A stretch of 55,898 nt of DNA from Cytophagales bacterium. Lineage in GTDB: Bacteria > Bacteroidota > Bacteroidia > Cytophagales > Microscillaceae. The notes below the pieces were generated by a model, which saw only the letters and a program-made list of their open reading frames with translations, was not told where the DNA came from and searched no databases. The stretch is taken from positions 274,492 to 330,389 of the forward strand of contig JANPJR010000030.1 in NCBI GenBank assembly GCA_031425615.1, read 5' to 3'. The position numbers and the translations under genes were made by a program. Below, one piece after another: positions 8,568-32,954 of this stretch. The first letter of the stretch is position 1. The number at the start of each line of letters is the position of its first letter.

Positions 8568-8786
8568 AAGGTTTAACATCAATTTATACACTTTTTTCAA
8601 TTACAATGTATTTATTGTTTCTCAAATATCCATAATAATCTATAACCATTCAAAAGTTTTTTGTTTGTTGGGCTGGAGCTGGACTTTATACGAATTTCTA
8701 AAAAATTTCCTAATTTTTGACAAAAAAACATTTCTCCAAAAAATGGCTTTTTTAAATTTAAAAACCGACAACTGAAAAAAACTAAA

Positions 8787-9446
8787 TTACTTATCTTCCA
8801 CAATTTTCCCTTTTTCCAACACAATTTTTCTGTCTGACATATCAGCGAGAGCAGTATTATGTGTAACAATCACAAACGTTTGCCCAAATTCTTTTCTAAG
8901 TGTAAAAAAAAGTTGATGCAATTCTTGTGCATTGTGTGTGTCAAGGTTGCCACTTGGTTCATCAGCAAAAATCACTTCTGGCGTGTTGATTAATGCCCTT
9001 GCGACTGCGGTGCGTTGTTGTTCGCCACCTGAAAGTTGAGCAGGAAGGTGCGTAAGTCGGTCTTTCAAACCCAAAAAATCCAGCAATTCACTTGCTTTTT
9101 TTTGGGATTCGCTTGTATTTTTTTTTGCCAAATATGCAGGCAGACACACATTTTCCAATACCGTAAATTCAGGCAAAAGGTTGTGAAACTGAAACACAAA
9201 ACCAATTTTTTGGTTGCGAAATTCCGCTAATTTTGTACCTTTTAGGTTTTGAATATCTGTATCACCAATACGCACCCTGCCTGTGTCAGCTTTGTCAAGT
9301 GTGCCAAGTATGTGCAAAAGCGTACTTTTGCCTGCGCCTGACGCACCTACAATGCTCACAATCTCACTTTTTTTTATCAACAATTCTACCCCTTGCAATA
9401 CGGTAACTTGTCCGTAAGATTTTTGTATATTTTCTGCGAAAACCAA
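8787..9446 (-). CDS. ABC transporter ATP-binding protein (LolD/FtsE-like)
   Basis: Walker [13 protein letters not shown] signature [15 protein letters not shown], Walker [12 protein letters not shown]; 219 aa. Confidence 0.85.
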
Positions 9447-9475
9447 AATAATAAAAAAGCCAAAAAAATGAAAAT

Positions 9476-9500
9476 GCCCCTAACCCCCAAAGGGGTAACA
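9476..9500 (-). terminator. CCCC-AAA-GGGG hairpin element downstream of the Mur ligase gene
   Basis: gcccctaacccccaaaggggtaac followed by A/T-rich tract. The same element recurs at 45961-45980. Confidence 0.4.
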
Positions 9501-9575
9501 AAAAGACTAAAAAATGATATAAAAATGCCACCTAATCCAAAGAGGAATAAACAGTATTTATGAAAAAACTGATAA

Positions 9576-10925
9576 CTAAAAAATATCCACAATTTTCTCA
9601 TCAAGGCTTCCCGAACTCATCAAAAGAAGATTTTTGTTGTGCCAATTTATATTTTTTAAAAAATCTTTTAATTTGCCTAAATCTGTAAAAACATGCAAAT
9701 TATCGTGGTCAAAAGCATTTTTTACAAAATCTTCATCTAAATTAGGCATATTTTTCAAAGCTAATGTATGTGCATCATAATACACAATTGCTATATCAGC
9801 AGGCGCCAGCGTATTGTGGTATTGTGCCAAAAAATTTGCATTTAGACTGCTGTATGTATGCAACTCCAAACAAGCAACCAATTTGCGTTCTACAAATTGA
9901 TTTTTGACCGCTTTTGTTGTAGCAATTACCTTAGAGGGTGCATGTGCAAAATCTTTAAAATAAATAAAGTTATCCGTTTCTTTTACTTTTTCAAGGCGTT
10001 TTGATGCACCTTTGAATGTACTAATTGCTTGATAAAATCCTTCTTCTGTGATACCAATTTTACTACAAACCACTTTTGCACAAGACACATTTTTGAGGTT
10101 ATGTTCTCCAAAAACTTCTAATTTTATGCGGTTATTTTCAACAGTCAAATACGTAATACCGTCCAAAATCTTATGTGGGTGTGCCAAATAAGGCATTTGT
10201 TGAATATCATTACGTTCTTTCGCCCCAATTACCGAAGCAATAGAATCCTCTTGGCTATAAATCAACGTGCCAGATTTTGGGATAGCATCTGCAAAATTTT
10301 CAAAAGGCTCTAAATAACTGTCCCATGTAGGATATACGTTGATATGGTCCCACGCTACACCTGTAATCACGCCAATATGTGCATGGTAGTGCATAAATTT
10401 TGGTGTGAGGTCAAATGGTGCAGAAGGATACTCATCACCCTCCAAAATAATCACAGGAGCATCTTCACTTAATTTTACCGAAGTTTCAAAACCTTCTAAA
10501 ATAGCACCAACTGCATAATCAAATTTTCGTTTGTGATAATTCAATACATGCATAATCATAGCGGTAACGGTAGTTTTGCCATGACTTCCCGCAATCACAA
10601 TTCTATGTTTTTGTTGTGCTTGTTGAAATATATATTCTGGAAAAGAATAAATTTTTAGTCCAAGTTCTTTTGCTTTTATGAGTTCAGGATTATCTGCTTT
10701 GGTGTGCATACCTACAATTACTGTATCAAGCTGTGCAGTAATTTTATCAGGAAACCACCCCAAATTTTCGGGTAAGATATTCGCTTTTTGTAGGCGAGAT
10801 TTTGCAGGTTCAAATATTTCATCGTCGCTACCTGTAACCACAATGCCTTTTTTTTGGGCATCAAGGGCTAACTGGTGCATAATGCTTCCGCCTATTGCTA
10901 TAAAATGAAAGTGTAAAGATGTCAT
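9576..10925 (-). CDS. Mur ligase family protein (Mpl/MurC-like UDP-N-acetylmuramate ligase)
   Basis: 449 aa. N-terminal HFIAIGGSIM...VTGSD Rossmann motif, AGSHGKTTVTAMI P-loop, EGDEYPSAPFD and HYHAHIGVITGVAWDH motifs of the MurC/Mpl family. Confidence 0.7.
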   Translation of the reverse strand: MTSLHFHFIAIGGSIMHQLALDAQKKGIVVTGSDDEIFEPAKSRLQKANILPENLGWFPDKITAQLDTVIVGMHTKADNPELIKAKELGLKIYSFPEYIFQQAQQKHRIVIAGSHGKTTVTAMIMHVLNYHKRKFDYAVGAILEGFETSVKLSEDAPVIILEGDEYPSAPFDLTPKFMHYHAHIGVITGVAWDHINVYPTWDSYLEPFENFADAIPKSGTLIYSQEDSIASVIGAKERNDIQQMPYLAHPHKILDGITYLTVENNRIKLEVFGEHNLKNVSCAKVVCSKIGITEEGFYQAISTFKGASKRLEKVKETDNFIYFKDFAHAPSKVIATTKAVKNQFVERKLVACLELHTYSSLNANFLAQYHNTLAPADIAIVYYDAHTLALKNMPNLDEDFVKNAFDHDNLHVFTDLGKLKDFLKNINWHNKNLLLMSSGSLDEKIVDIF

Positions 10926-11132
10926 TTATTTAATGTCAAATAATTTATCAAAGTATTATAAAATTTGTTTTAATCTACCCAATTTGCTTCGTTAATTTTT
11001 TTTTTAGATGTTTTTTTCTTAGATTTAAGCACACGGATAACGAAGATTTTACGGATTGAAACGTATTTTTAGACAACAAAACGAATTTAGAATTATTTTA
11101 TTAAAACGTAAAAAAATTAATTCTTAATTCTT

Positions 11133-11537
11133 TTAAGATATTTCCTCGCAAGGTATCATTTCAAATTTGAGGGTAGAAAAAGAATGAAAATCCTCACCCA
11201 AGTCTTTCATATCCTCGTCTTCTGTTTCATAAAACCATTGCACAATGATTTCTTGCTCAGGTGTTGCAGTATTTTCAATAAGTTTAATGATTTTGCCAAT
11301 CATACCTGATGTACTGGTATTGACATAAATCAATTTGAGTGCAAGGACTACTTTTTCGGGGTGTTGTTCCTTTAAAAACTGTTCAATATGTTCCAACAAA
11401 GGATTATAAAAATCTTCTGTATCTTCAGGGATTGACACGCCTTTTATTTCAAAAATGCCATTTTCAACCTTAAAAGTTACCTCTGGTGTGGTAGGTGTTT
11501 CTTTTATAAATAAATCTTCCATAAATAAAGGGTTCAA
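11133..11537 (-). CDS. DUF1987 (SiaC-like) protein, copy 1
   Basis: About 130 aa. ...TPEVTFKVENGIFEIKGVSIPEDTEDFYNPLLEHIEQF...LIYVNTSTSGMIGKIIKLIE...IVQWFYETEDEDM is the SiaC/DUF1987 pattern. The start may be the second Met, MEDLF. Confidence 0.75.
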   Translation of the reverse strand: MNPLFMEDLFIKETPTTPEVTFKVENGIFEIKGVSIPEDTEDFYNPLLEHIEQFLKEQHPEKVVLALKLIYVNTSTSGMIGKIIKLIENTATPEQEIIVQWFYETEDEDMKDLGEDFHSFSTLKFEMIPCEEIS

Positions 11538-11627
11538 AAGTTCAAAGGTTTAATAGTTCAAGGGGTTCAAAGAGATTCAAAAGTTTAAAGAATAATACTT
11601 TTCATTGAACCTTAAACCCTTTAATCT
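11529..11627. repeat. GTTCAAAGG-type degenerate tandem array with an internal inverted half
   Basis: ggttcaaaagttcaaaggtttaatagttcaaggggttcaaagagattcaaaagtttaaag ... ttcattgaaccttaaaccctttaatctttcatt, lying between the PP2C stop and the DUF1987 start. Confidence 0.7.
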
Positions 11628-11631
11628 TTCA

Positions 11632-13662
11632 TTATGTTAGTTTAAATCCAGCAACCAAAATATCGTCCATTTGTCTATTTGTTCCCATCCAATCTATAAG
11701 TGTTTTATTTAGGATTTTTCGTTGTTCAGTCATAGGTTCTTGATGATGCTCAAAAAGCAATTCTTCAAGTCTATTTTTTGAAAATTTACGCCCTCTTTGC
11801 CCACCAAATTGGTCTTGGAAACCGTCAGAATATACATAGATAGAAAGTGGATTTTCAGGGTTATAATTGAATACATGTGAAGTAAAAACCCTTTCCCTAT
11901 CTTTCTGAAAACCTCCCACAGGCAATTTACTTGATTCTATCACTTGCATTTGTCCATCTTGTATCAATAAAAGTGGTCTGCCTGCCCCTGCAAACTCCAA
12001 TCGTTTTTTGCGTGGGTCAATAATACACAATGCAACGTCCATGCCATCTTGATTTTGGGTTTCTTGTTGGTTAAGCGCAATGCCTATGCTATTGTGCAAT
12101 TCTTCCAAAATCCAGCTTGGGTCTGTAATACCTTGTAAGTTGATAATTTGGTTTAGATAAGAATCTCCCAACATGGACATAATAGCACCAGGCACACCAT
12201 GTCCTGTACAGTCTAACGCAGCAAAAATAACTTTGCCATTTTTTTCTGAAAACCAATAAAAATCACCTGAAACAATATCTCTTGGGCGAAATAATATAAA
12301 ATTTTCGGGGAAACCCGCAGAAATTTCCAAAGCTGTAGGGAGCATTGACTCCTGAATACGTTTGGCATACGTAATACTCGCGGTAATGTCTTTATTTTTG
12401 CGTTCTATTTCTTTAAAAGTAGCTTCCAGCGTTTCATTTTTCCGATTGATTGCTTCATTTTGGATTTCAATTTTACCTTTTTGGTCTTCCAATTCTTTAT
12501 TTTTTGCTTCAATTTCTATTTTTCTTGTTTCCAAAATTTCCTTTTGTGTAGTAAGTTCTTTAGAAGTTTTTTCTATTTCTTCTTTTTGACTTTGCAAAAT
12601 TTTATTTGTTCTTTTGCTTTGTATATTGCTTCTATACAAGAAAAATACTACCACAAGCACCAACAATACAACAGCAAAAAGGAGGTAAATCCACAGTGTT
12701 TGCCTGTGTGATTCCGCTTCAGCTAATTCTCTTTTTTTGCGTTCCAATTCTGCAAGTGCATTACTTTCTTCCAATCTACCTTGTGTAGCATCTTGCAAAT
12801 CTTTATAATACGTTTCTCTAATGCCCGCATATTGTGTATAAAATTCGTAGGCTTGTTTGTAGTTGGATTGTGTAACTGCTACTTGTGCAAGTCCTTGATA
12901 AGCACGTTGCAAATCTGCATTATCGCCACTGCGTTGTGCCATATACAGTAATTGGCGAAATGAACGAGAAGATTCAGGAATATTATCTTGTTGAAAAAAA
13001 GTTTCGCCTAATCTATGTAAATTATTCGCAATAAGTTTTCTATCCAACAATGAATCTGCCATTACAAGTGCTTTTTGATGATATTGAATGGCTTTATCAA
13101 ATTCTAATTTTTTGGAAAAAACAGTCCCAAGATTTGTCAAAGTAGTTGCAATGCCCTGTTTATCTTTCACATTTTGGTAAATTGAAAGCGCTTTTTCCAA
13201 ATAATTGAGGGCTTTGTCGTTCTCGTTCAATAAGGCATAACAACTGCCTAATCGGTTGTAACTCTCTGCTATTTTTGTATTATTTTTAGTATTTTCTTTG
13301 AGTGCTAAGGCTTTGAGGTAAAATTCTACTGCTTTCGTATAATCCCCTTGTATTTGATAAATATTACCTATTTTGTCTGCACTTGCAATAATACCTTGTA
13401 CATATTTTATTTTTTCGGAAATATGTAAGGCTTCTTCTGCGTATTTTCGGATTTTAGCTGGGCTTTCTTTTGTATTTTGGTATTCATCATACAAATTATT
13501 CAAAATTCGCACCCTTGTAGTGTCATTACGCGTCATTTTGAGCGTACTTTCAAGTTTTTCTATACGTGGATTAGGTTGTGCATAGCTTTTTGGGATAATA
13601 TTAAAGCATATTACCGCCATCAAAAAACCCAAAAAGCATCTTTTTTTATTCATAAGGGACAC
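11632..13662 (-). CDS. PP2C/SpoIIE-family Ser/Thr phosphatase with periplasmic TPR sensor, single TM helix and coiled-coil (SiaA-like)
   Basis: Signal peptide, about 280 aa of TPR repeats, TM LWIYLLFAVVLLVLVVVFFLY, heptad coiled-coil, then SpoIIE/PP2C core ...FRPRDIVSGDFYWFSEK...ALDCTGHGVPGAIMSML...YVYSDGFQDQFGG. Confidence 0.85.
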   Translation of the reverse strand: MSLMNKKRCFLGFLMAVICFNIIPKSYAQPNPRIEKLESTLKMTRNDTTRVRILNNLYDEYQNTKESPAKIRKYAEEALHISEKIKYVQGIIASADKIGNIYQIQGDYTKAVEFYLKALALKENTKNNTKIAESYNRLGSCYALLNENDKALNYLEKALSIYQNVKDKQGIATTLTNLGTVFSKKLEFDKAIQYHQKALVMADSLLDRKLIANNLHRLGETFFQQDNIPESSRSFRQLLYMAQRSGDNADLQRAYQGLAQVAVTQSNYKQAYEFYTQYAGIRETYYKDLQDATQGRLEESNALAELERKKRELAEAESHRQTLWIYLLFAVVLLVLVVVFFLYRSNIQSKRTNKILQSQKEEIEKTSKELTTQKEILETRKIEIEAKNKELEDQKGKIEIQNEAINRKNETLEATFKEIERKNKDITASITYAKRIQESMLPTALEISAGFPENFILFRPRDIVSGDFYWFSEKNGKVIFAALDCTGHGVPGAIMSMLGDSYLNQIINLQGITDPSWILEELHNSIGIALNQQETQNQDGMDVALCIIDPRKKRLEFAGAGRPLLLIQDGQMQVIESSKLPVGGFQKDRERVFTSHVFNYNPENPLSIYVYSDGFQDQFGGQRGRKFSKNRLEELLFEHHQEPMTEQRKILNKTLIDWMGTNRQMDDILVAGFKLT

Positions 13663-13785
13663 AGAAAAGCTTATTAGTCTATAAACATTAGCCTATAAAA
13701 TTATTTGTTGTTTTTAGTTGTTAATTATTTATTTAAAAAAAATAAAAACCTGACAACTAAAAAACTAACAATTGATACCTAAAAT

Positions 13786-14181
13786 TTAGTTTTCAGGTTC
13801 AAAAGAAAACATATTGATTTTCAAGCCTGTATCTTTCATATAATCTTCTGCTTCTTCTGCGATGCTGTCATCATCTTCAGGGTAATACCAATTTACAATA
13901 ACTTGTCCGCTTTCGTCTTCGTATTTTTTCAATACACGCAAAATATTGAGGATACTACGTGAAGAACTTGTATTAAAATATGTGAGCCTAAAATTGAATG
14001 TAAGCCCTTTTTTAATTTCACTGATGTATTTTTCCAACCAACCAATGATTTGGTTATAAAATTCGTCTGTATCTTCCAAGTATGATTCGCCTGATATTTC
14101 ACACACACCATTACCTGCATTAAGCATAACTTCGGGAATGAAATACACATCACTTTTCCCTGAAATTTCTAAATTTTCCAT
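13786..14181 (-). CDS. DUF1987 (SiaC-like) protein, copy 2
   Basis: MENLEISGKSDVYFIPEVMLNAGNGVCEISGESYLEDTDEFYNQIIGWLEKY...LTFNFRLTYFNTSSSRSILNIL...VIVNWYYPEDDD. Confidence 0.8.
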   Translation of the reverse strand: MENLEISGKSDVYFIPEVMLNAGNGVCEISGESYLEDTDEFYNQIIGWLEKYISEIKKGLTFNFRLTYFNTSSSRSILNILRVLKKYEDESGQVIVNWYYPEDDDSIAEEAEDYMKDTGLKINMFSFEPEN

Positions 14182-14322
14182 AGTATTTACAATTTTATAA
14201 TAAAAGGTTTTATAAAAATTTTATAATTGTGCGCAATTTTTGTGAAAAACTGTATTTGAAAATGTAGTTTTGTGATACATTTTTTACGTTGTTTTTTTTA
14301 TTAATTTTTAAAAATTATTTTT

Positions 14323-14892
14323 TTAAGTTGTTTCTTCTTCTTCTGGAAATTTGGCTACTGTTACAAATATGGCATAAAAAGCCATATCTCCCACAAGTTC
14401 TTTTATTTTGATTTCAAGTTTGTTGTCTGCAGTAAGTGCTACCTGCACAAGACCAATACCCGCTCCTTTACTTTCTTCGTTTTGTGGGTCATTGCGTAAC
14501 TTACGTTTGTATTCACGCAGGGCTTCACGGTCTAAAGTGCTGATAGTTTCATATTTTTCCAATAATTTTTGAACAGCAGTTTTATACACAAGATTTCCTG
14601 TGATGAGTTTGTATTCTGTTTCATTTTGAATGATTACAAGCGTGCCTACTTTGTCCCTATTACCAAAATGATTAATTTCTTTGGAATAATACAATACGTT
14701 TTGGGCTAACTCCATAAAAATGGCAAACACTTTTTTGCCTACTTTTGAGTTTTCTTCTTGTAATTTTTGGCGAATATCCCTACTAAACTCCGCCAAAAGA
14801 ACATCTGTAAGCGGACCTTTATAAGACAAAATAATATTCTCTTGGCTTATTTGGCTGTGATATTCAAAAAAATTAAAACCCTTTAAATTCAT
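14323..14892 (-). CDS. SiaB-like GHKL/anti-sigma-factor-type Ser/Thr kinase-like protein
   Basis: 189 aa. N-box-like FMELAQNVLYYSKE and G2-box-like SKGAGIGLVQVAL. It is the first gene of the DUF1987/PP2C operon and is homologous to the N-terminal half of the 24770-25774 fusion. Confidence 0.6.
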   Translation of the reverse strand: MNLKGFNFFEYHSQISQENIILSYKGPLTDVLLAEFSRDIRQKLQEENSKVGKKVFAIFMELAQNVLYYSKEINHFGNRDKVGTLVIIQNETEYKLITGNLVYKTAVQKLLEKYETISTLDREALREYKRKLRNDPQNEESKGAGIGLVQVALTADNKLEIKIKELVGDMAFYAIFVTVAKFPEEEETT

Positions 14893-15462
14893 ATAATTTT
14901 GCTAAAAAGTTGCTTCAAAGATAAGTAAAAACAATGAAATACAAATACGTTAATTGATATTTTTAATTTTACACGCTTAATTTTATACTTATTTCGTGTT
15001 TATTTTATTTGTAAAGCGTGTTTTATGGATTATGTTTTATAATTTTTGGTATTTTAAAACCTTAAAAATGGTAATAAGTGCAATAAAGTAAATTTTTGGC
15101 TAAAAATAAATATTTTTTTTTATTTTAAAAAACATCAAAACAAAAAAAATGTAAAAAAGAATGTAAAAGATGCTATTTTTTGTGAAAATATTTGTTTTTT
15201 TTGTTAGTTTTCAAGCTATTACACTGCTAAATCTAATAAACCACAAAAAAAAACGCCTGACAAAATCAAGCGTCTTTTTAACCTATTTATTTATTTTTTG
15301 CATGTTCTTTTTTTCTATCTATCTTTTTTTCTACTCGTCTTTTTTTTATCTATCTATGTTTATCTTTTCTGTCTTGCATGTTTAGTGTGTTGTTTAGGAC
15401 AACAAGCCATCAAATAACATTTTTTTACCTTTTACCCAATCAAAATAAATTGATTTTAGATT

Positions 15463-15834
15463 TTACCATTTATATTTCTGCAAAAGCAAAGTAAAACGGT
15501 CTTGCACACGGTATTTTTCATACGCTGGCTCATCTATTTGTTCCCAAACAGGAAAACCATATTGCATAGCAAGTTCAAGGTTTTTGTAAAAATCTTCGTC
15601 TTCGTCCTGCATAGCATACGCTTCCGCCAATACAAGATAAGCACGTGAATTATTTTGGTTGAGTTTCAACGCTCTTTCACCATATTGTATTGCGAGATTT
15701 TTGAATGAACCACTCATAAAGCAAATATTTTTAGTTGGTGTAAAAAATGTATGTAACTGTGTTTTGGTGTTTGATGATGCAAAGATATGTATAATGTAAA
15801 AATTTTCAAATTTTTTGTTACTGTCTTTATGCAA
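15463..15834 (-). CDS. hypothetical small TPR-like protein (true start probably the internal Met at complement 15717)
   Basis: ALKLNQNNSRAYLVLAEAYAMQDEDEDFYKNLELAMQYG looks like a single TPR-like helix pair; no other motif. Confidence 0.3.
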   Translation of the reverse strand: MHKDSNKKFENFYIIHIFASSNTKTQLHTFFTPTKNICFMSGSFKNLAIQYGERALKLNQNNSRAYLVLAEAYAMQDEDEDFYKNLELAMQYGFPVWEQIDEPAYEKYRVQDRFTLLLQKYKW

Positions 15835-16256
15835 TATTTAATGTATTTTTTGTAGTATTTTGTAGTATTTTTATGAAAAATTATTTTTTTACTATTTTAT
15901 AAATAATAAAAAATATCCTTAAATCAAATGTAAAACCATTTTTAAAAATTAAATCTACAAAAACATAAGATAATAACTTATTGTACTTTTTTATTTATTT
16001 TTCAACTAATTTATAAAATAATACGCTTTTTTTTGATGACGACTGTTTTGGTAAAACATGAAAACGTGTAAATAATTGCATTTTTTTTGTGAAAAATATA
16101 AAAAAAGCAATTATTTAGCCTCCTAAAAACCAAAAGGGGAATAAATACTTTTTTTTTGTATTTATACCCCCTTTGACGTAAAAAAACACTATTTAGTTGC
16201 GTAAAATCTGTAAAATACGCCATTTTAACATTTTTTTACATTTTTCAAAAAAACGC

Positions 16257-22885: not shown

Positions 22886-24538
22886 TTACAATTCTTCCGA
22901 AGGTTTTTCCAATTTACCTTCACCTTCTTTCAAAAATTTCTCAAAATCTTCTTCTGAGTTACCACTTTCTTTTTCCATTTCTTTACGTTTTTTACGTTTT
23001 TCTTCTGCTTCTTTTTCTGCTTTTTTGTTTGCCTCTTGTGTTTTTAGGTAGAGGTCATATAGGGCTGGAATAGCGTTGGTTTTGGCATCTTGGAAAGCAA
23101 GCGAAACTTGTGCTTTTATCAAATCTTTGTCTTTTTGTACACCATTTACCGTAAGGGCAAGACCTTTTAGGCTTTTTTCTATAGGCTCAAATGCCCCAGA
23201 TATTTCTTTTGTATTTTTGAGGAGTTGCACAAGGTCAAAATACAATACCATATTTTGGTTTTGGGTTATGCTTGTGATGAGGTTATTTTTGCCAAGTTCT
23301 CCTTTTTCTGCTTTTATTTTTTCCAAAAGTTGTTTGCCATTGATGACATGCAACATATCTTTTTCTATATAGACATAGCTTTCTTCGCTTCCTGTACCTC
23401 TGCCTTGATAGGTATTATCTGCTATTTTTTTGAAAGTTTCGCTTGTACGTTCATTACGCATCATATCATCAAATATTTTACGGTCTTTGATTTTGATGGT
23501 TGTACTAAAAGTTGGTATTTTTCCAGAGAAAATTTTTGAAAAATCTATATTTTCCAACGCAAAAGCTAAATCGCCTGTTACATTTTGTAATACACTAAAA
23601 AGTTCTGTACCTGTATCTTTTTTGAAATTGCGTGCTTCTTTTTCAAAATCTTTGTCTTTTTTGAGTTCTGCAATAATGCCTTCCATATTAAGTGCAGTGC
23701 TTAAAAACACTTTTGGATTTGCAACAGGGTTGTCGTTCAATACACTTTTATCAAGGTTTGTGCGGATGAGGCGGGCATATTTTTCTGATTTCCCTTTCAT
23801 AAAATAGGTAAAAATTTCCATGTTGATAGCACCACTTTCAAAATTGAGGGCAAAATTTGCCCCTATGATGTCGTCTTTTGCTTGATTTTTTACATTATTA
23901 GGCAAAAAATACATAGAAAGTGCGTCAGTTGCATTTTGTGTATTTATCCAAAATTGTATATCGTGTGTATTTTTTTGTGTTTCGGTAAATATAGGATTTT
24001 TTGCCCCAAAACTTTCGCTGACAGAGATTGCACTCCAAGCATTTACATTTTTGAGCAATTCATTTTCACTTTTATCGCCTATTGCTCCCCAAAGGATATT
24101 ATTTTTCCAAGCAAGCAAAAGCGGTTTTTTGTAAATATAGCTTAGGTTTTCTGCTTTTTTTGGTGCAATTTTAAATGCTTTTTGGGCACTTTCCGCCCAT
24201 TTTTTTTCGTCTTTGAGCAAAATGTGCATACCTAAAAAGGCATTTTCAGGCTTTTTGGCATCTGCATTTGTGTAGAAATACATGCGTTGTGTGTCGTCAA
24301 AACTACCATCAAGCAACAAAGGCAGTACTTCTGCAAAACTTTCTGATTCAGGAAAATTTTCTAAGAATTTTTTGTCCTTCAAAATTTTTATCATATCAGT
24401 TGATTTTCCCAAGATTTTTTTCAAATCAACTGTGATAACTGCATTGGCTGTGTTTGGGATTTGGGGCATTTTTCTGCCACCGCAAGACACTAATAAACCC
24501 AAGAAGAGGGCAAAAAGTGAGACTTTGGATAAATTCAT
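22886..24538 (-). CDS. hypothetical lipoprotein (DUF4836-like), C-terminal K/E-rich tail
   Basis: Likely start at the Met of MNLSKVSLFALFLGLLVSCGG (lipobox). The ORF-track start at 24586 runs into the tandem repeat array. About 550 aa, no enzymatic motifs. Confidence 0.55.
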   Translation of the reverse strand: MNLSKVSLFALFLGLLVSCGGRKMPQIPNTANAVITVDLKKILGKSTDMIKILKDKKFLENFPESESFAEVLPLLLDGSFDDTQRMYFYTNADAKKPENAFLGMHILLKDEKKWAESAQKAFKIAPKKAENLSYIYKKPLLLAWKNNILWGAIGDKSENELLKNVNAWSAISVSESFGAKNPIFTETQKNTHDIQFWINTQNATDALSMYFLPNNVKNQAKDDIIGANFALNFESGAINMEIFTYFMKGKSEKYARLIRTNLDKSVLNDNPVANPKVFLSTALNMEGIIAELKKDKDFEKEARNFKKDTGTELFSVLQNVTGDLAFALENIDFSKIFSGKIPTFSTTIKIKDRKIFDDMMRNERTSETFKKIADNTYQGRGTGSEESYVYIEKDMLHVINGKQLLEKIKAEKGELGKNNLITSITQNQNMVLYFDLVQLLKNTKEISGAFEPIEKSLKGLALTVNGVQKDKDLIKAQVSLAFQDAKTNAIPALYDLYLKTQEANKKAEKEAEEKRKKRKEMEKESGNSEEDFEKFLKEGEGKLEKPSEEL

Positions 24539-24680
24539 GTTCAAAAGTTTAAGGGTTTTAAAAGGTTTAATGTTCAAAAGATTCAAGGTTCAAAGGGTTC
24601 AAGGTTCAAAAGGTTTAAGGTTCAAAGGTTTTAAGGTTTAAGGGTTCAAGGTTCAAAAGGTTTAAGGGACAAAGTTTTTA
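24538..24680. repeat. largest GTTCAAAGG / GGTTTAAGG tandem array (about 14 units, roughly 9-10 bp period)
   Basis: ...ggttcaaagggttcaaggttcaaaaggtttaaggttcaaaggttttaaggtttaagggttcaaggttcaaaaggtttaagg..., seen directly in the sequence. Confidence 0.8.
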
Positions 24681-24769: not shown

Positions 24770-25774
24770 TTAATCTTCATCATCAACTTCATAGCCTATA
24801 AAATTCATATCAATTTTTGCACTTTCGCTAAGGTCTTGTGCTTCTTTGACAATATCAGTATCATCTTCGGGATAAAACCAATTTACTTCTACTTTTCCAC
24901 CACGTATTTCATACGCTTTTAGGCTACGAAGTGTGTCTAAAATGGCTTTGTAAGAGCTTGTATTAAAATAGGTAAGGCGAAAATTGAATGTAATTTTATT
25001 GTTGGATTCTTTGGTATATTTGTCAATCCAGCTAATAATTTTGGAGTAAAACTCGTTGGTGTATTCCAAATAGGATTCACCAGCCAGCTCACATACCCCT
25101 GTATCACCATTGAGCATTACATAAGGGGTATAAAATTCGCCTTTGTTACTTTTGATGTGTAATGTTTCCATTTGTTGCGTAGATTTTTTTTGGGTGGAAT
25201 TTTTTGAAACAGTAATTAAAAGGGTATAATATGTATATAAGTCATTTATAGGTTGCAAATCTACATGAATAGGATTTTCGGACACAAGGGTAGCTTTGAT
25301 AAGTCCTACGCCTGCTCCTTTGCTATCAGGGTTGTTTGGATTGTCATTTTCTACAATTTCCATGCGGTATTTTCTAAGCCCGTCAGTATCAAGCGTTTGG
25401 ATTTTTTTTGCTTGTTTATCAATAAATTCAGCTTGTTTGTGGGTGATGAGATTACCAGTAAAAAGGTGATAACTTGTTTCCCCTTCCGAAAGCACAATCG
25501 TACCAACAGGTGTAGCTTCGCCAAATTGGTTAATTTCTGCGGAATAATAAAAAATATTTTGGGCTAATTCCAAAAAAATATTGTGTAATTTTCTGCCTGC
25601 ACTTCTATTATTTACTTTATGAACGATTTCGTTGTCCATTTCTGCAATAATTTTGGTGGTGATAGAACCTCTGTAAGACAATATGACGTTTTCGTTGGGT
25701 AAATCCGCATAATATGCCAATGTACCAAGCTGTTCGAGCATATCTAATTTCATAATTGAGACAGTTTTTTCCAT
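24770..25774 (-). CDS. fusion protein: SiaB-like kinase-like domain (N) plus DUF1987/SiaC-like domain (C)
   Basis: Residues 1-190 (...NIFLELAQNIFYYSAE...SKGAGVGLIKATL) align with the 14323-14892 product. After the linker KNSTQKKSTQQMETL, residues about 205-334 (EFYTPYVMLNGDTGVCELAGESYLEYTNEFYSKIISWIDKY...ITFNFRLTYFNTSSYKAILDTL...VEVNWFYPEDDTD) align with the two DUF1987 proteins. Single continuous ORF. Confidence 0.75.
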   Translation of the reverse strand: MEKTVSIMKLDMLEQLGTLAYYADLPNENVILSYRGSITTKIIAEMDNEIVHKVNNRSAGRKLHNIFLELAQNIFYYSAEINQFGEATPVGTIVLSEGETSYHLFTGNLITHKQAEFIDKQAKKIQTLDTDGLRKYRMEIVENDNPNNPDSKGAGVGLIKATLVSENPIHVDLQPINDLYTYYTLLITVSKNSTQKKSTQQMETLHIKSNKGEFYTPYVMLNGDTGVCELAGESYLEYTNEFYSKIISWIDKYTKESNNKITFNFRLTYFNTSSYKAILDTLRSLKAYEIRGGKVEVNWFYPEDDTDIVKEAQDLSESAKIDMNFIGYEVDDED

Positions 25775-25838: not shown

Positions 25839-26093
25839 TTAAAAATTCAATTTCTCTACATTTCTTTTTTTTATCCATTCCAAATACACTTGTAATTCTT
25901 CTGCATTTTTGAGTGTTTGGAGGTCAGTATATTGTTTTGCGAGTGTTTTGTTGTCTATGTGGTGGTGTATGCTGCTATGACAAGGCTGGCACAGGGCTAC
26001 AGTTTTGGTGTGTTTTCCGCCTTTTGATTTTGGCAAAAGGTGGTGTTTAGAGGTGCGTTTTACCTCTCTTTCGCATAATTCGCAGATAGGCAT
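25839..26093 (-). CDS. small HNH endonuclease-motif protein
   Basis: 84 aa. CELC...HHLLPKSKGG...ALCQPCHSSIHH is an HNH/zinc-ribbon pattern. Confidence 0.65.
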   Translation of the reverse strand: MPICELCEREVKRTSKHHLLPKSKGGKHTKTVALCQPCHSSIHHHIDNKTLAKQYTDLQTLKNAEELQVYLEWIKKRNVEKLNF

Positions 26094-26338: not shown

Positions 26339-27766
26339 TTATTCATGGCTATCAAACACCACATTACCCAAACTTCTGCCATCATCACGTTTTTGGCGAA
26401 GAAGTATTGCTTCACGTTTTTCTTCTTGCAAATTAATAAAGTTGTAAATTAGCTTTCCTTTTTCAGTGGTTTCTATTTCTCCGTCCAAATCCTTAATAAG
26501 TTCTTGCATCATGTAATCAATCGTTTCTCTTGGTATGTTTGATTCACCACTTTCACGTGGATTGACAAGTTTTTCCAATTCTTCTGCGGTTACTTTGCCT
26601 TCTTCTTGCGAAAATATGGCTTTCATCAACCTTTTTCGGATATTTTCTAAATCTCTTTTGCGTGAAAATGCCCCAATTTGAAAATATCGCATGATAGGCA
26701 CAAGGAAAAATATCACTGAAAACACAAAAGGCACCCAACCCAACCCAACCGTAATGCCTGCTCCCATGTCTTGTTGCAAGCCCATAGATACAAAAGCAAG
26801 TGCAAAAGAAAGGTTAAACAAACCCATGAACACAATCCAAAAGTTACGCCAAAAAGTATTGCCTGTTAAGTTGTATTTTGGCACATATTCGTCCCAATAC
26901 CAAATTACTTTTTCTTTACCCTCTACACCTTTTGTACGTGTAAAATCTCTAAAATCGCCATACAATACTTTATTTTCGCTGATTTGGGCATCACCTTGAT
27001 ATTTGGCAATACTTTCCGAAAAAAAATTTTCTGCTTCTGCACTTCTCCAACCTGCCAAACCTATGATTTCACTTCGTGTAACAATGCCTTTATTATCTCT
27101 CAAATATTGTGCAAGTTCTCGGTGTTGGTCTTGTCGTGTGGTTTCAACTCTTTCAGGCCCAAAAACAAAATCATATACAGAGGCTACAAAGTCTTTCCCT
27201 CCTTTTTTATCCAATGCAGAAGTACGTGAATCATATTCTCGGTAACGATAACCGTCATTATCATACACATAGTGCGTATTGCTTGTGTGTGTATTCCAAA
27301 TAAAAATTCCCCTGAACAATTCACCTAAAATATTGAAAAAACCACCATCACTATCCGAAGAACTACTTGAATCGCTATCGCTGTTCCCTGAAAGAGAAGC
27401 AATAATTATCGCAATCAAAATTATTAGAAATATCACAAAATATACGACCAATGTAACCGAAATCCATATTTTAAAAAAAACCATAAAGGCTTTCCACAAT
27501 ACTTGTTTTGCCCCAAACCACCATTCTTCCCACGTTCTTTCACCTCTTTTGTGGAGAACTTCGCCAAAATCATAGATTAAATCACCATTTTCGGTAATTT
27601 TGAGGCGACAATCATACAACGACAGAAGCCTTGTCAATATATCTTTTGCGTCATTGACTGAAGTACCTGCTATGGATGCTGCGTCACCAATCGTAAGCAC
27701 TCTATCACGCCCTTGTATGCGTGTTTCTATTTTTTTTAGCCCTTCTAAAACTGCTACATTGCTCAT
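26339..27766 (-). CDS. hypothetical membrane protein with an internally duplicated soluble domain
   Basis: 475 aa. N-terminal ...LYDCRLKITENGDLIYDFG and C-terminal ...DLDGEIETTEKGKLIYNFI are clearly related repeats. Two hydrophobic blocks are separated by a Ser/Asp-rich linker. Confidence 0.45.
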   Translation of the reverse strand: MSNVAVLEGLKKIETRIQGRDRVLTIGDAASIAGTSVNDAKDILTRLLSLYDCRLKITENGDLIYDFGEVLHKRGERTWEEWWFGAKQVLWKAFMVFFKIWISVTLVVYFVIFLIILIAIIIASLSGNSDSDSSSSSDSDGGFFNILGELFRGIFIWNTHTSNTHYVYDNDGYRYREYDSRTSALDKKGGKDFVASVYDFVFGPERVETTRQDQHRELAQYLRDNKGIVTRSEIIGLAGWRSAEAENFFSESIAKYQGDAQISENKVLYGDFRDFTRTKGVEGKEKVIWYWDEYVPKYNLTGNTFWRNFWIVFMGLFNLSFALAFVSMGLQQDMGAGITVGLGWVPFVFSVIFFLVPIMRYFQIGAFSRKRDLENIRKRLMKAIFSQEEGKVTAEELEKLVNPRESGESNIPRETIDYMMQELIKDLDGEIETTEKGKLIYNFINLQEEKREAILLRQKRDDGRSLGNVVFDSHE

Positions 27767-30341: not shown

Positions 30342-32954
30342 ATGTCCAATCAAACCGCTACAAAAACCTTTAAAATACGTCCTATTCATACCAAAATTAT
30401 ATTTTGGGTGTTTTTTACTGCACTTTTGGCAATGATTGGGATTGCGATAAGCATATACAAATGGATATACAATCCTTTGGAACTCACTTTTTTGGGTTGG
30501 GTACTGATAAGTGGGGGTATTGTTTTTCTGCAATTTGGTTTATGGTTTTCGTTTTTACGTGTGGTTGTAGCACCTTTACAAAATCTTGCACAAACTGCAA
30601 AATCAATATCAGAAGGCGACATTTCTATAAATGTAGAAATTAATGCTTTTGATGAAATAGGAAGTATTGCCCATTCCACAAATTCTATTGCACAAAGCAT
30701 CAAACAAGCGAGAGAATTTACAAATAGCATAGGCGAAGGGAATTTTGAGGTTTCAATTTTACAAACTAACCAAAAAAATACAGAAAAAGATGGGCTGTTT
30801 ATTTCATTAATGAAAATGCGAAACCAGCTTAAAAAAGTAGCAGATGAAGATGGAAAACGTAATTGGATTGCCAAAGGTATGGCAGAATTTACCAAAATAT
30901 TACAGTCCAACGATATTAGTATTCAAGAATTGGGTAAAGCTGTAATTGTTGAACTTATCAATTATTTGAAAGCCTCACAAGGGGCAATATTCATGTTGAA
31001 TAATTTTCAAGAAGACAATCCATATTTAGAACTTGTGGCAACTTATGCATACAATAAATTGTCATTTGAAGAAAAAAAAATTATCCTAAAAGAAAATTTT
31101 GCTGATGGTCTTGTGGGACAGGCTTTTTTGGAAAATAATATCATCAACCTTTCTAATATTCCGCCCAATTACCCTTACATTTCTTCAGGTTTGGGTGAAA
31201 CACAACCAAAAAATATCCTTATTGTACCACTTCAACTCAATGGTAAAACGGAGGGCGTAGTAGAAATTGCATCTTTTAGTACGTTCCAACCACACGAAAT
31301 AGAATTTATTGAGCGTATTTCGCAAAATATTGCCTCTGCAATACTTACCATTAAAACAAATGACAACACCAAAAAATTATTATATGAATCTCAAACGCTT
31401 GCCACAAAACTACAAGCACAAGAAAATGAACTAAAAGAAAGTTTATTAGAATTGCAAAGTAGTCAAATGGAAATAGAAAAGAAAAACCAAGAAATAGAAG
31501 CCCAAAAACGCAAAACCGAAGAAGCACTTGAAGAACAAACCGAAAAAAGCGAAATGCTTGAAGCACAAGAAGAAGAAATGCGTCAAAATATGGACGAATT
31601 GCTTACCATACAAGAACAAATGCGTATTACGCAGCTTGAACTTGATGGTCAGCTCAATGCAATCAATTCAAGTGCCATTTGCAAAGTAGAATATTCATTG
31701 GAAGGCAAAATCATAAAAGCAAATGAAAGTTATTGCAAACTTGTAAAATGTGATGAAGATGAAGTAAAAAATCTCCCACATAGCACATTTGTTGATAATA
31801 GATTTGCAAAAACAGACGCATATAAAATGTTTTGGGAAAATCTTAAAAATGGTATTCCACAAACAGGTGATTATCAATATGTGGATTGGGAAGGTGAAGA
31901 GTTTTGGATAAATGCGGTGTATTCGCCTATGTTGGATAACAAAGGCAAACCTCAAAAAATTATTCAACTCGCTTTTGACATTACAGAAGCAAAAAATCTC
32001 CTCCAAGAAATTCAAATGCAAACTTCTGTACTCAAAATGCAAGAAACGGAACTAAAAGACCGTATGAAACAACTCACAAACGCACAAGCAGAAATCAATG
32101 CCAAAAATCAAGCAATTATTGAACTCAAGGAAGAAGAAACCCGCAATGCACAACAACGTACCAGAGAAACTGAAAGCAAAAACCAACTTATCACATCAAG
32201 CATCAATTACGCCCAAAGTATTCAAAAAGCCATATTACCCAATGAAGACAAAATAAAGCAATATGTACAAGATTTTTTCGTGATTTTTATGCCAAAAGAT
32301 ATTGTTTCAGGTGATTTTTATTGGTTTTTGCATGTAGAACAACTCAATATTTCGTTTTTTGCTACTGTTGATTGCACAGGACATGGTGTGCCAGGTGCTT
32401 TTATGTCTATTATTGGTAATACTATTCTTAATGAAATCGTCAATGGACAAAAAATATATGAACCACACAAAATCCTTGAACTCTTACATATTGGCATAAG
32501 AACACGCCTAAGACAAGGCGAAACCACCAACCAAGATGGTATGGATATCGTACTCTGTAAAATAGCCCCAACAGCAACAGAAGAGGTAATCGTAACTTTT
32601 GCAGGAGCAAAAAGACCAATTTTTGTGTACGAAAATACATTACACGAAATACAAGAACATAAAGGCGACCGCAAATCTATTGGTGGATTTCAAGGAGAAG
32701 ATTATAGAGCTTTTTCGCAACAAGAATTTACCCTCAAAAAAGGAAATATCTTGTACCTCACAAGTGATGGCATAATGGATAATCCTAACCAACAACGTAA
32801 AAAATTTGGTGTACAAAAATTTAAAGATATTGCCCTCCAAAATATCAATAAAACCCTAAAACAACAATGTATTCTGCTTATCAACGAAATCATTTCACAC
32901 CAAGACGGAGCAGACCAACGTGATGATATTACAGTTATGGGGATAAGGTTGTAA
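30342..32954 (+). CDS. membrane sensor PP2C/SpoIIE phosphatase: 2 TM, HAMP, GAF, PAS, coiled-coils, PP2C (second SiaA-like protein)
   Basis: 870 aa. The TM pair flanks a short loop. HAMP-like ...VVVAPLQNLAQTAKSISEGDISINVEI.... GAF ...SQGAIFMLNNFQ...GVVEIASFS. PAS ...AICKVEYSLEGKII...WINAVYSPMLDNKG. C-terminal PP2C KDIVSGDFYWFLHV...VDCTGHGVPGAFMSIIG...YLTSDGIMD. Confidence 0.85.
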   Translation: MSNQTATKTFKIRPIHTKIIFWVFFTALLAMIGIAISIYKWIYNPLELTFLGWVLISGGIVFLQFGLWFSFLRVVVAPLQNLAQTAKSISEGDISINVEINAFDEIGSIAHSTNSIAQSIKQAREFTNSIGEGNFEVSILQTNQKNTEKDGLFISLMKMRNQLKKVADEDGKRNWIAKGMAEFTKILQSNDISIQELGKAVIVELINYLKASQGAIFMLNNFQEDNPYLELVATYAYNKLSFEEKKIILKENFADGLVGQAFLENNIINLSNIPPNYPYISSGLGETQPKNILIVPLQLNGKTEGVVEIASFSTFQPHEIEFIERISQNIASAILTIKTNDNTKKLLYESQTLATKLQAQENELKESLLELQSSQMEIEKKNQEIEAQKRKTEEALEEQTEKSEMLEAQEEEMRQNMDELLTIQEQMRITQLELDGQLNAINSSAICKVEYSLEGKIIKANESYCKLVKCDEDEVKNLPHSTFVDNRFAKTDAYKMFWENLKNGIPQTGDYQYVDWEGEEFWINAVYSPMLDNKGKPQKIIQLAFDITEAKNLLQEIQMQTSVLKMQETELKDRMKQLTNAQAEINAKNQAIIELKEEETRNAQQRTRETESKNQLITSSINYAQSIQKAILPNEDKIKQYVQDFFVIFMPKDIVSGDFYWFLHVEQLNISFFATVDCTGHGVPGAFMSIIGNTILNEIVNGQKIYEPHKILELLHIGIRTRLRQGETTNQDGMDIVLCKIAPTATEEVIVTFAGAKRPIFVYENTLHEIQEHKGDRKSIGGFQGEDYRAFSQQEFTLKKGNILYLTSDGIMDNPNQQRKKFGVQKFKDIALQNINKTLKQQCILLINEIISHQDGADQRDDITVMGIRL

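Follow-up and report, generated by a model that had tools for sequence, protein, structure and literature searches.

A predicted SiaABC-type partner switch without a linked diguanylate cyclase in a Cytophagales bacterium

What does a SiaABC-type phosphorylation switch act on when no diguanylate cyclase gene lies beside it? The question is raised by four head-to-tail genes on the minus strand of a stretch of 55,898 nucleotides from a Cytophagales bacterium (GenBank assembly GCA_031425615.1, contig JANPJR010000030.1, positions 274,492 to 330,389), which as a whole is called the window here. Open reading frame (ORF) calling placed a siaB-like kinase gene (189 amino acids) at 14892..14323, siaC-a for a SiaC-family (DUF1987) phosphoprotein (131 amino acids) at 14181..13786, a gene for a sensor phosphatase with TPR repeats and a PP2C domain (TPR-PP2C#2, 676 amino acids) at 13662..11632, and siaC-b for a second SiaC-family phosphoprotein (129 amino acids) at 11522..11133. 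Judged by alignment, all catalytic and acceptor features of the SiaABC switch are present and conserved in these products, and their order is kept in 18 genomes. The genes probably form a SiaABC-type Ser/Thr partner switch in which unphosphorylated SiaC acts on effectors encoded elsewhere and not on a cyclase in cis. The window has a G+C content of ~33%, and the nearest database relatives of its proteins were from metagenome-assembled genomes of Microscillaceae/Cytophagales, which bears out the placement in Bacteroidota.

Products and layout of the four genes

The siaB product, described as GHKL-type kinase-like in the first-pass annotation of this DNA, matched Pfam DUF6272 (PF19788; 2e-33), passed the NCBIfam model NF038262, SiaB_fam_kinase (160.8 bits, cutoff 85), and aligned over its full length with Pseudomonas aeruginosa SiaB (PDB 6KKO_A, 3.3e-20). 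With 28 homologs as input, AlphaFold2 gave a model (mean predicted local distance difference test score, pLDDT, 85.6) whose top Foldseek match was SiaB 6KKO_A, with template-modelling (TM) scores of 0.74/0.81, followed by SpoIIAB, UsfX, histidine-kinase CA domains and PDK-type kinases; taken together, these are proteins of the GHKL fold. The fold of this product had been named beforehand as the point on which the kinase assignment could fail, and it is GHKL that was predicted. Across the 28 homologs, Glu61, Asn65 and A144-G147 of the G-box GAGIGL (at 143) were invariant, and G143 was kept in at least 90%. Glu61 corresponds to the catalytic residue predicted for SiaB (PMC7647112). Of the family searches that had been proposed, those with PF09345 and SpoIIE gave the expected matches but that with HATPase_c_2 did not, since neither HATPase_c_2 nor STAS was matched in Pfam by any of the four products at E<=0.1; the kinase was recognised by DUF6272 and NF038262 instead.

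The architecture of the phosphatase also agreed with its earlier description as a TPR/transmembrane/PP2C protein. TPR_12 (1.2e-37) and SpoIIE (7.8e-18) were matched in Pfam, and hydropathy showed an N-terminal hydrophobic signal (amino acids ~9-27) and one transmembrane segment (~319-349). The TPR repeats (~40-290) lie between these two, and a highly charged helical stalk of ~90 residues (~350-440) and the PP2C domain (~475-670) follow. The TPR repeats are thus predicted to be an extracytoplasmic sensor. The NCBIfam SiaA model NF038263 covered amino acids 380-675, and the SiaA-PP2C structure 6K4E was matched at 2.5e-41, with other PP2C structures at just ~1e-5; by these comparisons, the catalytic half is specifically SiaA-like. 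The metal-site motifs GDFY, DCTGHG (DCxGHG), DGFQDQ (DGFxDQ) and DD were kept, and equivalents of the metal-binding residues of SiaA, D457, D474/G477, D600/G601/D604 and D653 (PMC7647112), were all present. An alternative ATG start lies three codons into the gene, at 13653.

The two DUF1987 genes were confirmed as a duplicated putative target, with matches to PF09345 (SiaC family regulatory phosphoprotein) of 4.9e-39 for SiaC-a and 2.7e-36 for SiaC-b. SiaC-a matched P. aeruginosa SiaC in 6KKO_C at 4.1e-15 and in 6K4F also at ~4e-15, so that together with the matches of the kinase and the phosphatase the proposed likeness to the SiaA-SiaB-SiaC triad was upheld. The motif Y-[FV]-N-T-S-[ST] had been noticed in three DUF1987 copies of the window and was found in all of them, as YFNTSS in SiaC-a (Thr71 in LTYFNTSSS), YVNTST in SiaC-b (Thr69 in LIYVNTSTS) and YFNTSS in the third copy (Thr272), which is part of a fused protein described below. 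Its suggested role as phospho-acceptor gained from the alignment of Y-F-N-T-S of SiaC-a with Y65-L-N67-T68-S69 of P. aeruginosa SiaC, in which T68 is phosphorylated by SiaB and dephosphorylated by SiaA (PMC8457831, PMC7647112) and N67/T68/S69 make up a patch that slots in between the stalk helices of the cyclase SiaD (PMC8457831). Thr71, Thr69 and Thr272 are therefore the predicted acceptors, and the equivalent of Thr68 was invariant in 16 SiaC-a and 15 SiaC-b orthologs.

The co-directional arrangement and the positions of the four genes were also as first annotated, with 141, 123 and 94 bp between the ORFs. Starting siaC-b at the ATG at 11522 widens the last gap to 109 bp. The mechanically called ORF reaches a TTG at 11537 (134 amino acids; by that numbering, the acceptor is Thr74). 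Because all 15 orthologs use ATG-GAA-GA (M-E-D/N/E/S) as the start, with lengths of ~129-132 amino acids from it, the ATG at 11522 is almost certainly the true start. The -7 promoter consensus of Bacteroidota, known from Bacteroides and Flavobacterium promoters, is TAnnTTTG. One match, TAtcTTTG at 14923..14916 (minus strand), ends 23 nt upstream of the siaB ATG and is the sole intergenic coding-strand match in the region; the three internal gaps contain none. A terminator-like hairpin with a 15-pair stem and a T-run at 15279..15247 (minus strand), upstream of siaB, is likely the end of the preceding transcription unit. The terminator scan found no intrinsic-terminator-like site in the three internal gaps; elsewhere on the minus strand it gave two more matches, both of them weak stems of 6 pairs, one within siaB and one within the PP2C gene. 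The single -7-like box and the lack of internal terminators are compatible with one transcript for the four genes, and the internal gaps of the cassette in relatives are often just 14-130 bp. The hexamer TTGAAC occurs four times in direct and once in inverted orientation in the 109 bp between the PP2C#2 gene and siaC-b (11523-11631), where the window average is ~0.9 per kb with both strands counted. This cluster was dismissed as a regulatory site because conservation is partial in the closest relative and does not extend to the other cassettes.

The cassette and its families in related genomes

A SiaB alignment pattern scanned over one genome per GTDB species gave 80 loci, essentially all from Cytophagales; ORFs were called in these, and SiaB, SiaC and PP2C homologs were labelled by profiles built from the window proteins. 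The order SiaB, SiaC (131 amino acids), TPR-PP2C (~650-690 amino acids) was found in 17 assemblies and was followed by SiaC (~129 amino acids) except in locus L042, where the ORF calls held no siaC-b. Exact-protein look-up showed the full string in Eisenibacter elegans also, which brings the count to 18 assemblies, with siaC-b next in 17 and with a span of 57-94% SiaB identity. Microscilla marina has the same cassette. A sensor PP2C gene lay directly upstream of siaB on the same strand in 13 of the 18 assemblies, usually coding for ~866 amino acids and sometimes for a Y_Y_Y/PAS version of 1225-1667 amino acids. By this comparison of gene orders, the Microscillaceae cassette is a conserved set of five genes: PP2C#1, SiaB, SiaC-a, TPR-PP2C#2 and SiaC-b.

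In the window, PP2C#1 is found at 30342..32954 on the plus strand and codes for 870 amino acids with two transmembrane segments, HAMP, GAF, PAS and a SiaA-like PP2C domain (Pfam HAMP, GAF, PAS_9 and SpoIIE; NF038263 182.9 bits, below the cutoff of 700). It clustered with the upstream PP2C of loci L006, L013, L014, L016, L022, L023 and L033 and was 52% identical to the L006 copy over 858 amino acids. Sequence thus identifies it as the ortholog of the PP2C next to siaB in relatives, here ~15 kb off and on the opposite strand. The phosphatase had been annotated as sensing through TPR rather than HAMP, which is correct for PP2C#2 but leaves out the HAMP-bearing PP2C#1. No remnant of PP2C#1 was found upstream of siaB, the gene at 30342..32954 being intact.

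Synteny with the closest relative, L005 (79-84% nucleotide identity), ran from 8776 to 14945 and stopped 53 nt upstream of the siaB start codon. This break suggests that the region upstream of siaB was recently rearranged in the window lineage, and the same rearrangement probably separated PP2C#1 from the cassette. Beyond the break, L005 has a divergent gene for a SiaB-like protein of 229 amino acids (1128-1817). The window side (14893-16256) has a G+C content of 24.5%, with a TPR-like ORF of 123 amino acids (15463..15834) as its sole ORF. Since PP2C#1 is upstream of siaB in relatives, the ancestral order PP2C-SiaB-SiaC equals siaA-siaB-siaC of Pseudomonas; a gene order different from that of Pseudomonas, as first annotated, is therefore true of this locus but not of the ancestral cassette. 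In the latter, TPR-PP2C and the second siaC would occupy the position of siaD.

In the alignment, the SiaC copies of the cassettes fell cleanly into two ortholog groups. The SiaC-a group, in which identity across Microscillaceae is 69-97%, has the motifs LTYFNTSSSRSIL and GESYLEDT; the SiaC-b group has L(I/V)Y(V/I)NT(S/G/A)TS and GVSIPEDT. Pairs of SiaB and SiaC-a alone were found in other Cytophagales families (Flexithrix dorotheae, L061; a Bernardetiaceae metagenome-assembled genome, L079), and SiaC-b was observed, in the loci sampled, solely directly after TPR-PP2C. From these two observations, an ancestral A-B-C core with an accessory phosphatase/SiaC-b pair was inferred.

The SiaB family is, by the locus counts, strongly expanded in Microscillaceae. 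The best-sampled genomes each yielded at least 5-7 SiaB loci in the 80-locus scan, and the SiaB paralogs were unusually alike, with 60-74% identity to the window protein. Apart from the orphan genes counted in the next section, SiaB homologs occurred as tandem SiaB-SiaB genes, as neighbours of PP2C genes and as PP2C-SiaB fusions, among them a TPR-PP2C-SiaB protein of 1056 amino acids in L043. The window itself holds a fused SiaB-SiaC protein of 334 amino acids (25774..24770, minus strand; NF038262 122.6 bits, PF09345 3.3e-36), with the kinase domain at amino acids ~20-190 (E69, N73, G-box at 153) and the SiaC domain at ~205-330. The third DUF1987 copy of the first-pass annotation is thus real, with the refinement that it is joined to a second SiaB-like kinase domain; the fused protein probably belongs to the same signalling network as the cassette.

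A word-indexed search with the fused protein returned three close relatives only. A full HMMER search of 1.84 billion representatives, clustered at 50% identity, gave 4,479 matches at E<=1e-3, which hit one or other of its domains. The best 150 of the 4,479 included, by length and matched region, ~20 SiaB-SiaC, six SiaB-SiaB-SiaC, ~10 SiaC-SiaC, four SiaB-SiaB and three PP2C-SiaB proteins, and Pfam scans confirmed the architecture in all ten representative fusions. As Rosetta-stone fusions, they support a kinase-substrate-phosphatase relation in this lineage. They also suggest, at the level of architecture, that SiaC acts as a dimer, as it does on SiaD, where it binds as a dimer to a parallel coiled-coil stalk (PMC8457831).

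A predicted lipoprotein of 566 amino acids with no Pfam/NCBIfam match (window 22886-24586, minus strand; L010 11930-13570; L024 15195-16805) adjoins SiaB-family genes in three arrangements, which are the fusion gene here and the tandem SiaB loci in L010 and L024. It was dismissed as a direct cytoplasmic partner of SiaB because its lipoprotein signal peptide marks it as exported. On the upstream side of the fusion gene are an HNH_5 endonuclease ORF of 84 amino acids (25839-26093, minus strand), which lies just next to it, and a membrane protein of 475 amino acids with no significant family match (26339-27766, minus strand). The window also contains a DnaB replicative helicase of 855 amino acids (33696-36263, plus strand); an intein interrupts it, in which Hint and LAGLIDADG homing-endonuclease domains were recognised (Pfam Hom_end_hint 1.5e-21, Hom_end 1.1e-10).

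Search for the output and competing explanations

The window and 84 fetched loci (~80 of the SiaB family), with ~10 kb around each, were scanned in six frames, 1.36 Mb in total. No GG[DE]EF, DxDxFK-ND or HD-GYP signature was found in the 1.36 Mb, although a motif scan would miss a degenerate GGDEF, and a co-transcribed SiaD-type GGDEF cyclase with a coiled-coil stalk was not found in the window or the 84 loci. Pfam scans of essentially all larger window ORFs showed no GGDEF, EAL, sigma factor or DNA-binding regulator. The earlier statement that the window lacks a GGDEF or other obvious output gene is therefore sustained by both kinds of scan.

Clustering of all ORFs from the 84 loci for conserved neighbours of the cassette recovered merely hisA, hisH and DUF7832, or cinA/mutS, or mpl/lolD, and no sigma factor was among the recurrent neighbours. 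The cassette flanks are housekeeping synteny; in the window, they hold genes for a Mur ligase (mpl/murC-like) and for an ABC ATPase that is lolD-like. The neighbours of orphan SiaB genes gave no regulatory hint either, being arginase, Cu-oxidase_4 and DUF4199 genes and, further, genes for a succinate-dehydrogenase-like Fe-S protein, an amino-acid permease fusion and DUF2306. Tandem-SiaB loci elsewhere have REC and histidine-kinase genes nearby, whereas the window does not. No effector domain was fused to SiaB or SiaC in the best 150 matches, as judged by lengths, regions and the ten Pfam-scanned representatives, and no link to anti-phage defence was found by a PADLOC scan. The literature searched on DUF1987, DUF6272, slr1658/slr1659 and Bacteroidetes c-di-GMP (cyclic di-GMP) gave nothing useful beyond the P. 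aeruginosa papers and no published work on such systems outside Pseudomonas; DUF1987 was mentioned in one paper only of the collection searched.

Since none of the relatives has an effector gene linked to the cassette, the output was taken to be a protein encoded in trans. By analogy with P. aeruginosa, SiaB would phosphorylate Thr71 of SiaC-a and Thr69 of SiaC-b, and both sensor phosphatases would strip the phosphate from the two proteins, TPR-PP2C#2 in response to a periplasmic or envelope cue read through its TPR repeats and PP2C#1 in response to a cytoplasmic cue read through GAF/PAS. Unphosphorylated SiaC-a and SiaC-b, possibly as an a/b dimer, would then exchange the kinase for one or more effector proteins as binding partner, so that the output would act in trans through protein-protein interaction with SiaC-a and/or SiaC-b.

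Several observations weigh against this reading. The steps of the mechanism are transferred from P. aeruginosa proteins that are just ~26-33% identical, and the scores against the NCBIfam equivalog models were under the cutoffs in all three families, with 95.7 bits against 225 for the kinase (SiaB, NF038264), 85 and 83 against 150 for SiaC-a and SiaC-b (NF038265) and 192.5 bits against 700 for TPR-PP2C#2 (SiaA, NF038263); by sequence, the 189-amino-acid protein belongs to the SiaB family without being orthologous to SiaB proper. For an operon, gaps of 94-141 bp are long. In the AlphaFold2 model of the fused SiaB-SiaC protein, both domains were confident (pLDDT 86.5) but their mutual orientation was not (predicted TM score, pTM, 0.55). 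SiaC residues D79, R103 and L107, which make bonds to SiaD in Pseudomonas (PMC8457831), read in the alignment as R, S and E in SiaC-a; the partner surface of SiaC-a thus appears to differ from that of Pseudomonas SiaC, which fits another partner. Finally, ~50 of roughly 85 SiaB homologs in the Cytophagales loci are orphans among housekeeping genes, and this orphan majority may indicate that the output runs through SiaB and not through SiaC.

That last possibility was considered as an RsbW/SpoIIAB-like arrangement in which SiaB sequesters a regulator, for example a sigma factor, unphosphorylated SiaC-a/b release it and the PP2Cs set SiaC phosphorylation. SpoIIAB and UsfX were the best structural matches after SiaB itself, SiaB has been described as that member of the switch which resembles an anti-sigma factor (PMC7647112), and the many SiaB homologs without an adjacent SiaC, with 5-7 paralogs in each best-sampled genome, hint at tasks other than the phosphorylation of a SiaC encoded next door. 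It is nevertheless unlikely, as no sigma factor or regulator gene adjoins any of the 80 SiaB loci or lies in the window, the sole studied system outputs via SiaC, and the 60-74% identity of the paralogs is easier to reconcile with one common substrate than with a variety of sequestered targets. If a SiaD-like diguanylate cyclase were encoded at another place in the genome and activated by unphosphorylated SiaC, the only experimentally established function of SiaC (PMC8457831) would be preserved, and the SiaD-inserting Y-x-N-T-S patch is fully conserved while the view of the genome is limited to 56 kb. The absence of GG[DE]EF from the scanned 1.36 Mb, the loss of the SiaD-contact residues in SiaC-a and the phosphatase and second SiaC that fill the post-siaC position in 17 of 18 genomes make this explanation rather improbable.

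Another explanation keeps the switch internal, with SiaC-a, as the ancestral partner of SiaB, binding the coiled-coil stalk of TPR-PP2C and tuning its activity on phosphorylated SiaC-b, the latter being the output adaptor. TPR-PP2C, like SiaD, has a charged helical stalk of ~90 amino acids N-terminal to its catalytic domain, the stalk to which SiaC binds in Pseudomonas is a parallel coiled coil (PMC8457831), and the solitary SiaB-SiaC-a pairs of L061 and L079 and the restriction of SiaC-b to the place behind TPR-PP2C would suit a cascade. The argument is one of position and architecture, and SiaC-b, which has the same acceptor motif, could just as well be phosphorylated by SiaB directly; such a cascade is very unlikely. 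A broader version was rated as quite unlikely: a two-tier switch in which SiaC-a, freed by PP2C#1, binds the TPR-PP2C stalk and gates SiaC-b dephosphorylation with no nucleotide messenger, the orphan SiaBs (at least 5-7 paralogs in the best-sampled genomes) converge on both SiaCs, and SiaC-b or an a/b heterodimer regulates a Bacteroidota-specific effector. If true, it would describe a hub of many kinases and few substrates on two highly conserved SiaC proteins. The four genes might also be adjacent but independently transcribed paralogs of an expanded family that form no functional unit. Their gaps are AT-rich and 94-141 bp long and the family is dispersed with many orphan genes, but order and orientation are kept in 18 assemblies while both flanks vary, internal terminators and -7 boxes were not found and fusions join the components in other genomes; mere adjacency is accordingly given almost no credence. 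A SiaABC-type switch with effectors encoded in trans is thus the reading preferred here.

Relation to known systems and significance

The closest known system is SiaABCD of P. aeruginosa (PA0172-PA0169; PDB 6K4E, 6K4F, 6KKO and 7E6G), with which the cassette has three protein families in common. The likeness extends to the SiaA-specific PP2C domain with its preceding helix, the SiaB-type GHKL kinase with Glu61, the Y65/N67/T68/S69 patch, the A-B-C order of the ancestral cassette and the transmembrane segments and HAMP of PP2C#1. The differences are the lack of SiaD in cis here and in the related loci, the TPR phosphatase and second SiaC at its place, the GAF and PAS domains that are added in PP2C#1, the unlinked position of PP2C#1 in this genome, the identity of ~26-33% with scores under the equivalog cutoffs in all three families, and the partly replaced SiaD-contact residues. 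The cassette was not filed as SiaABCD because SiaD was not found in the scanned DNA and membership is at the family and not the equivalog level; on the sequence evidence, it is classed as a partner switch of SiaABC type whose architecture is different and duplicated.

The combination of a sensor PP2C, a GHKL kinase and a small phosphorylatable antagonist is also the logic of RsbU/RsbV/RsbW and SpoIIE/SpoIIAA/SpoIIAB, and SpoIIAB was the next-best structural match of the kinase model. Unlike in those systems, the antagonist here is DUF1987 and not STAS, the kinase is DUF6272/SiaB and not HATPase_c_2, and no sigma gene is associated. Mycobacterium tuberculosis Rv1364c unites PAS, PP2C, kinase and STAS modules in one chain. 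It has been mentioned as the closest structure to SiaA-PP2C (PMC7647112). Relatives of the window likewise fuse modules, as in the TPR-PP2C-SiaB protein of L043, and so does the SiaB-SiaC protein at 24770..25774, but the kinase and antagonist are from other families and no chain with all three modules was seen. In HptB-HsbR-HsbA-HsbD of P. aeruginosa and BgrSTUWV-BgrR of Sinorhizobium meliloti, the antagonist directly activates an enzyme and releases no sigma factor (PMC8457831); in both, the antagonist is a STAS protein and the output is a diguanylate cyclase, and the cassette was found to have neither. DUF1987 has been described as widespread and as probably modulating adjacent proteins (PMC8457831). 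The relatives' proteins are already entered in databases as 'SiaB family protein kinase' and 'DUF1987 domain-containing protein', and because NCBI family models already cover SiaB/SiaC proteins, the parts of the cassette are not new and it is no new kind of system.

SiaABC is understood only as the on-switch of one Pseudomonas diguanylate cyclase, and the SiaB and DUF1987/SiaC families are large. The cassette duplicates the sensor phosphatase and the phosphoprotein and is without a cis cyclase in 18 genomes; with the whole switch kept in this form, it offers a clean case for other targets of SiaC-type proteins. Eisenibacter elegans and Microscilla marina are available in culture. As sequenced, named species that carry the cassette, they make the question of its output experimentally accessible.

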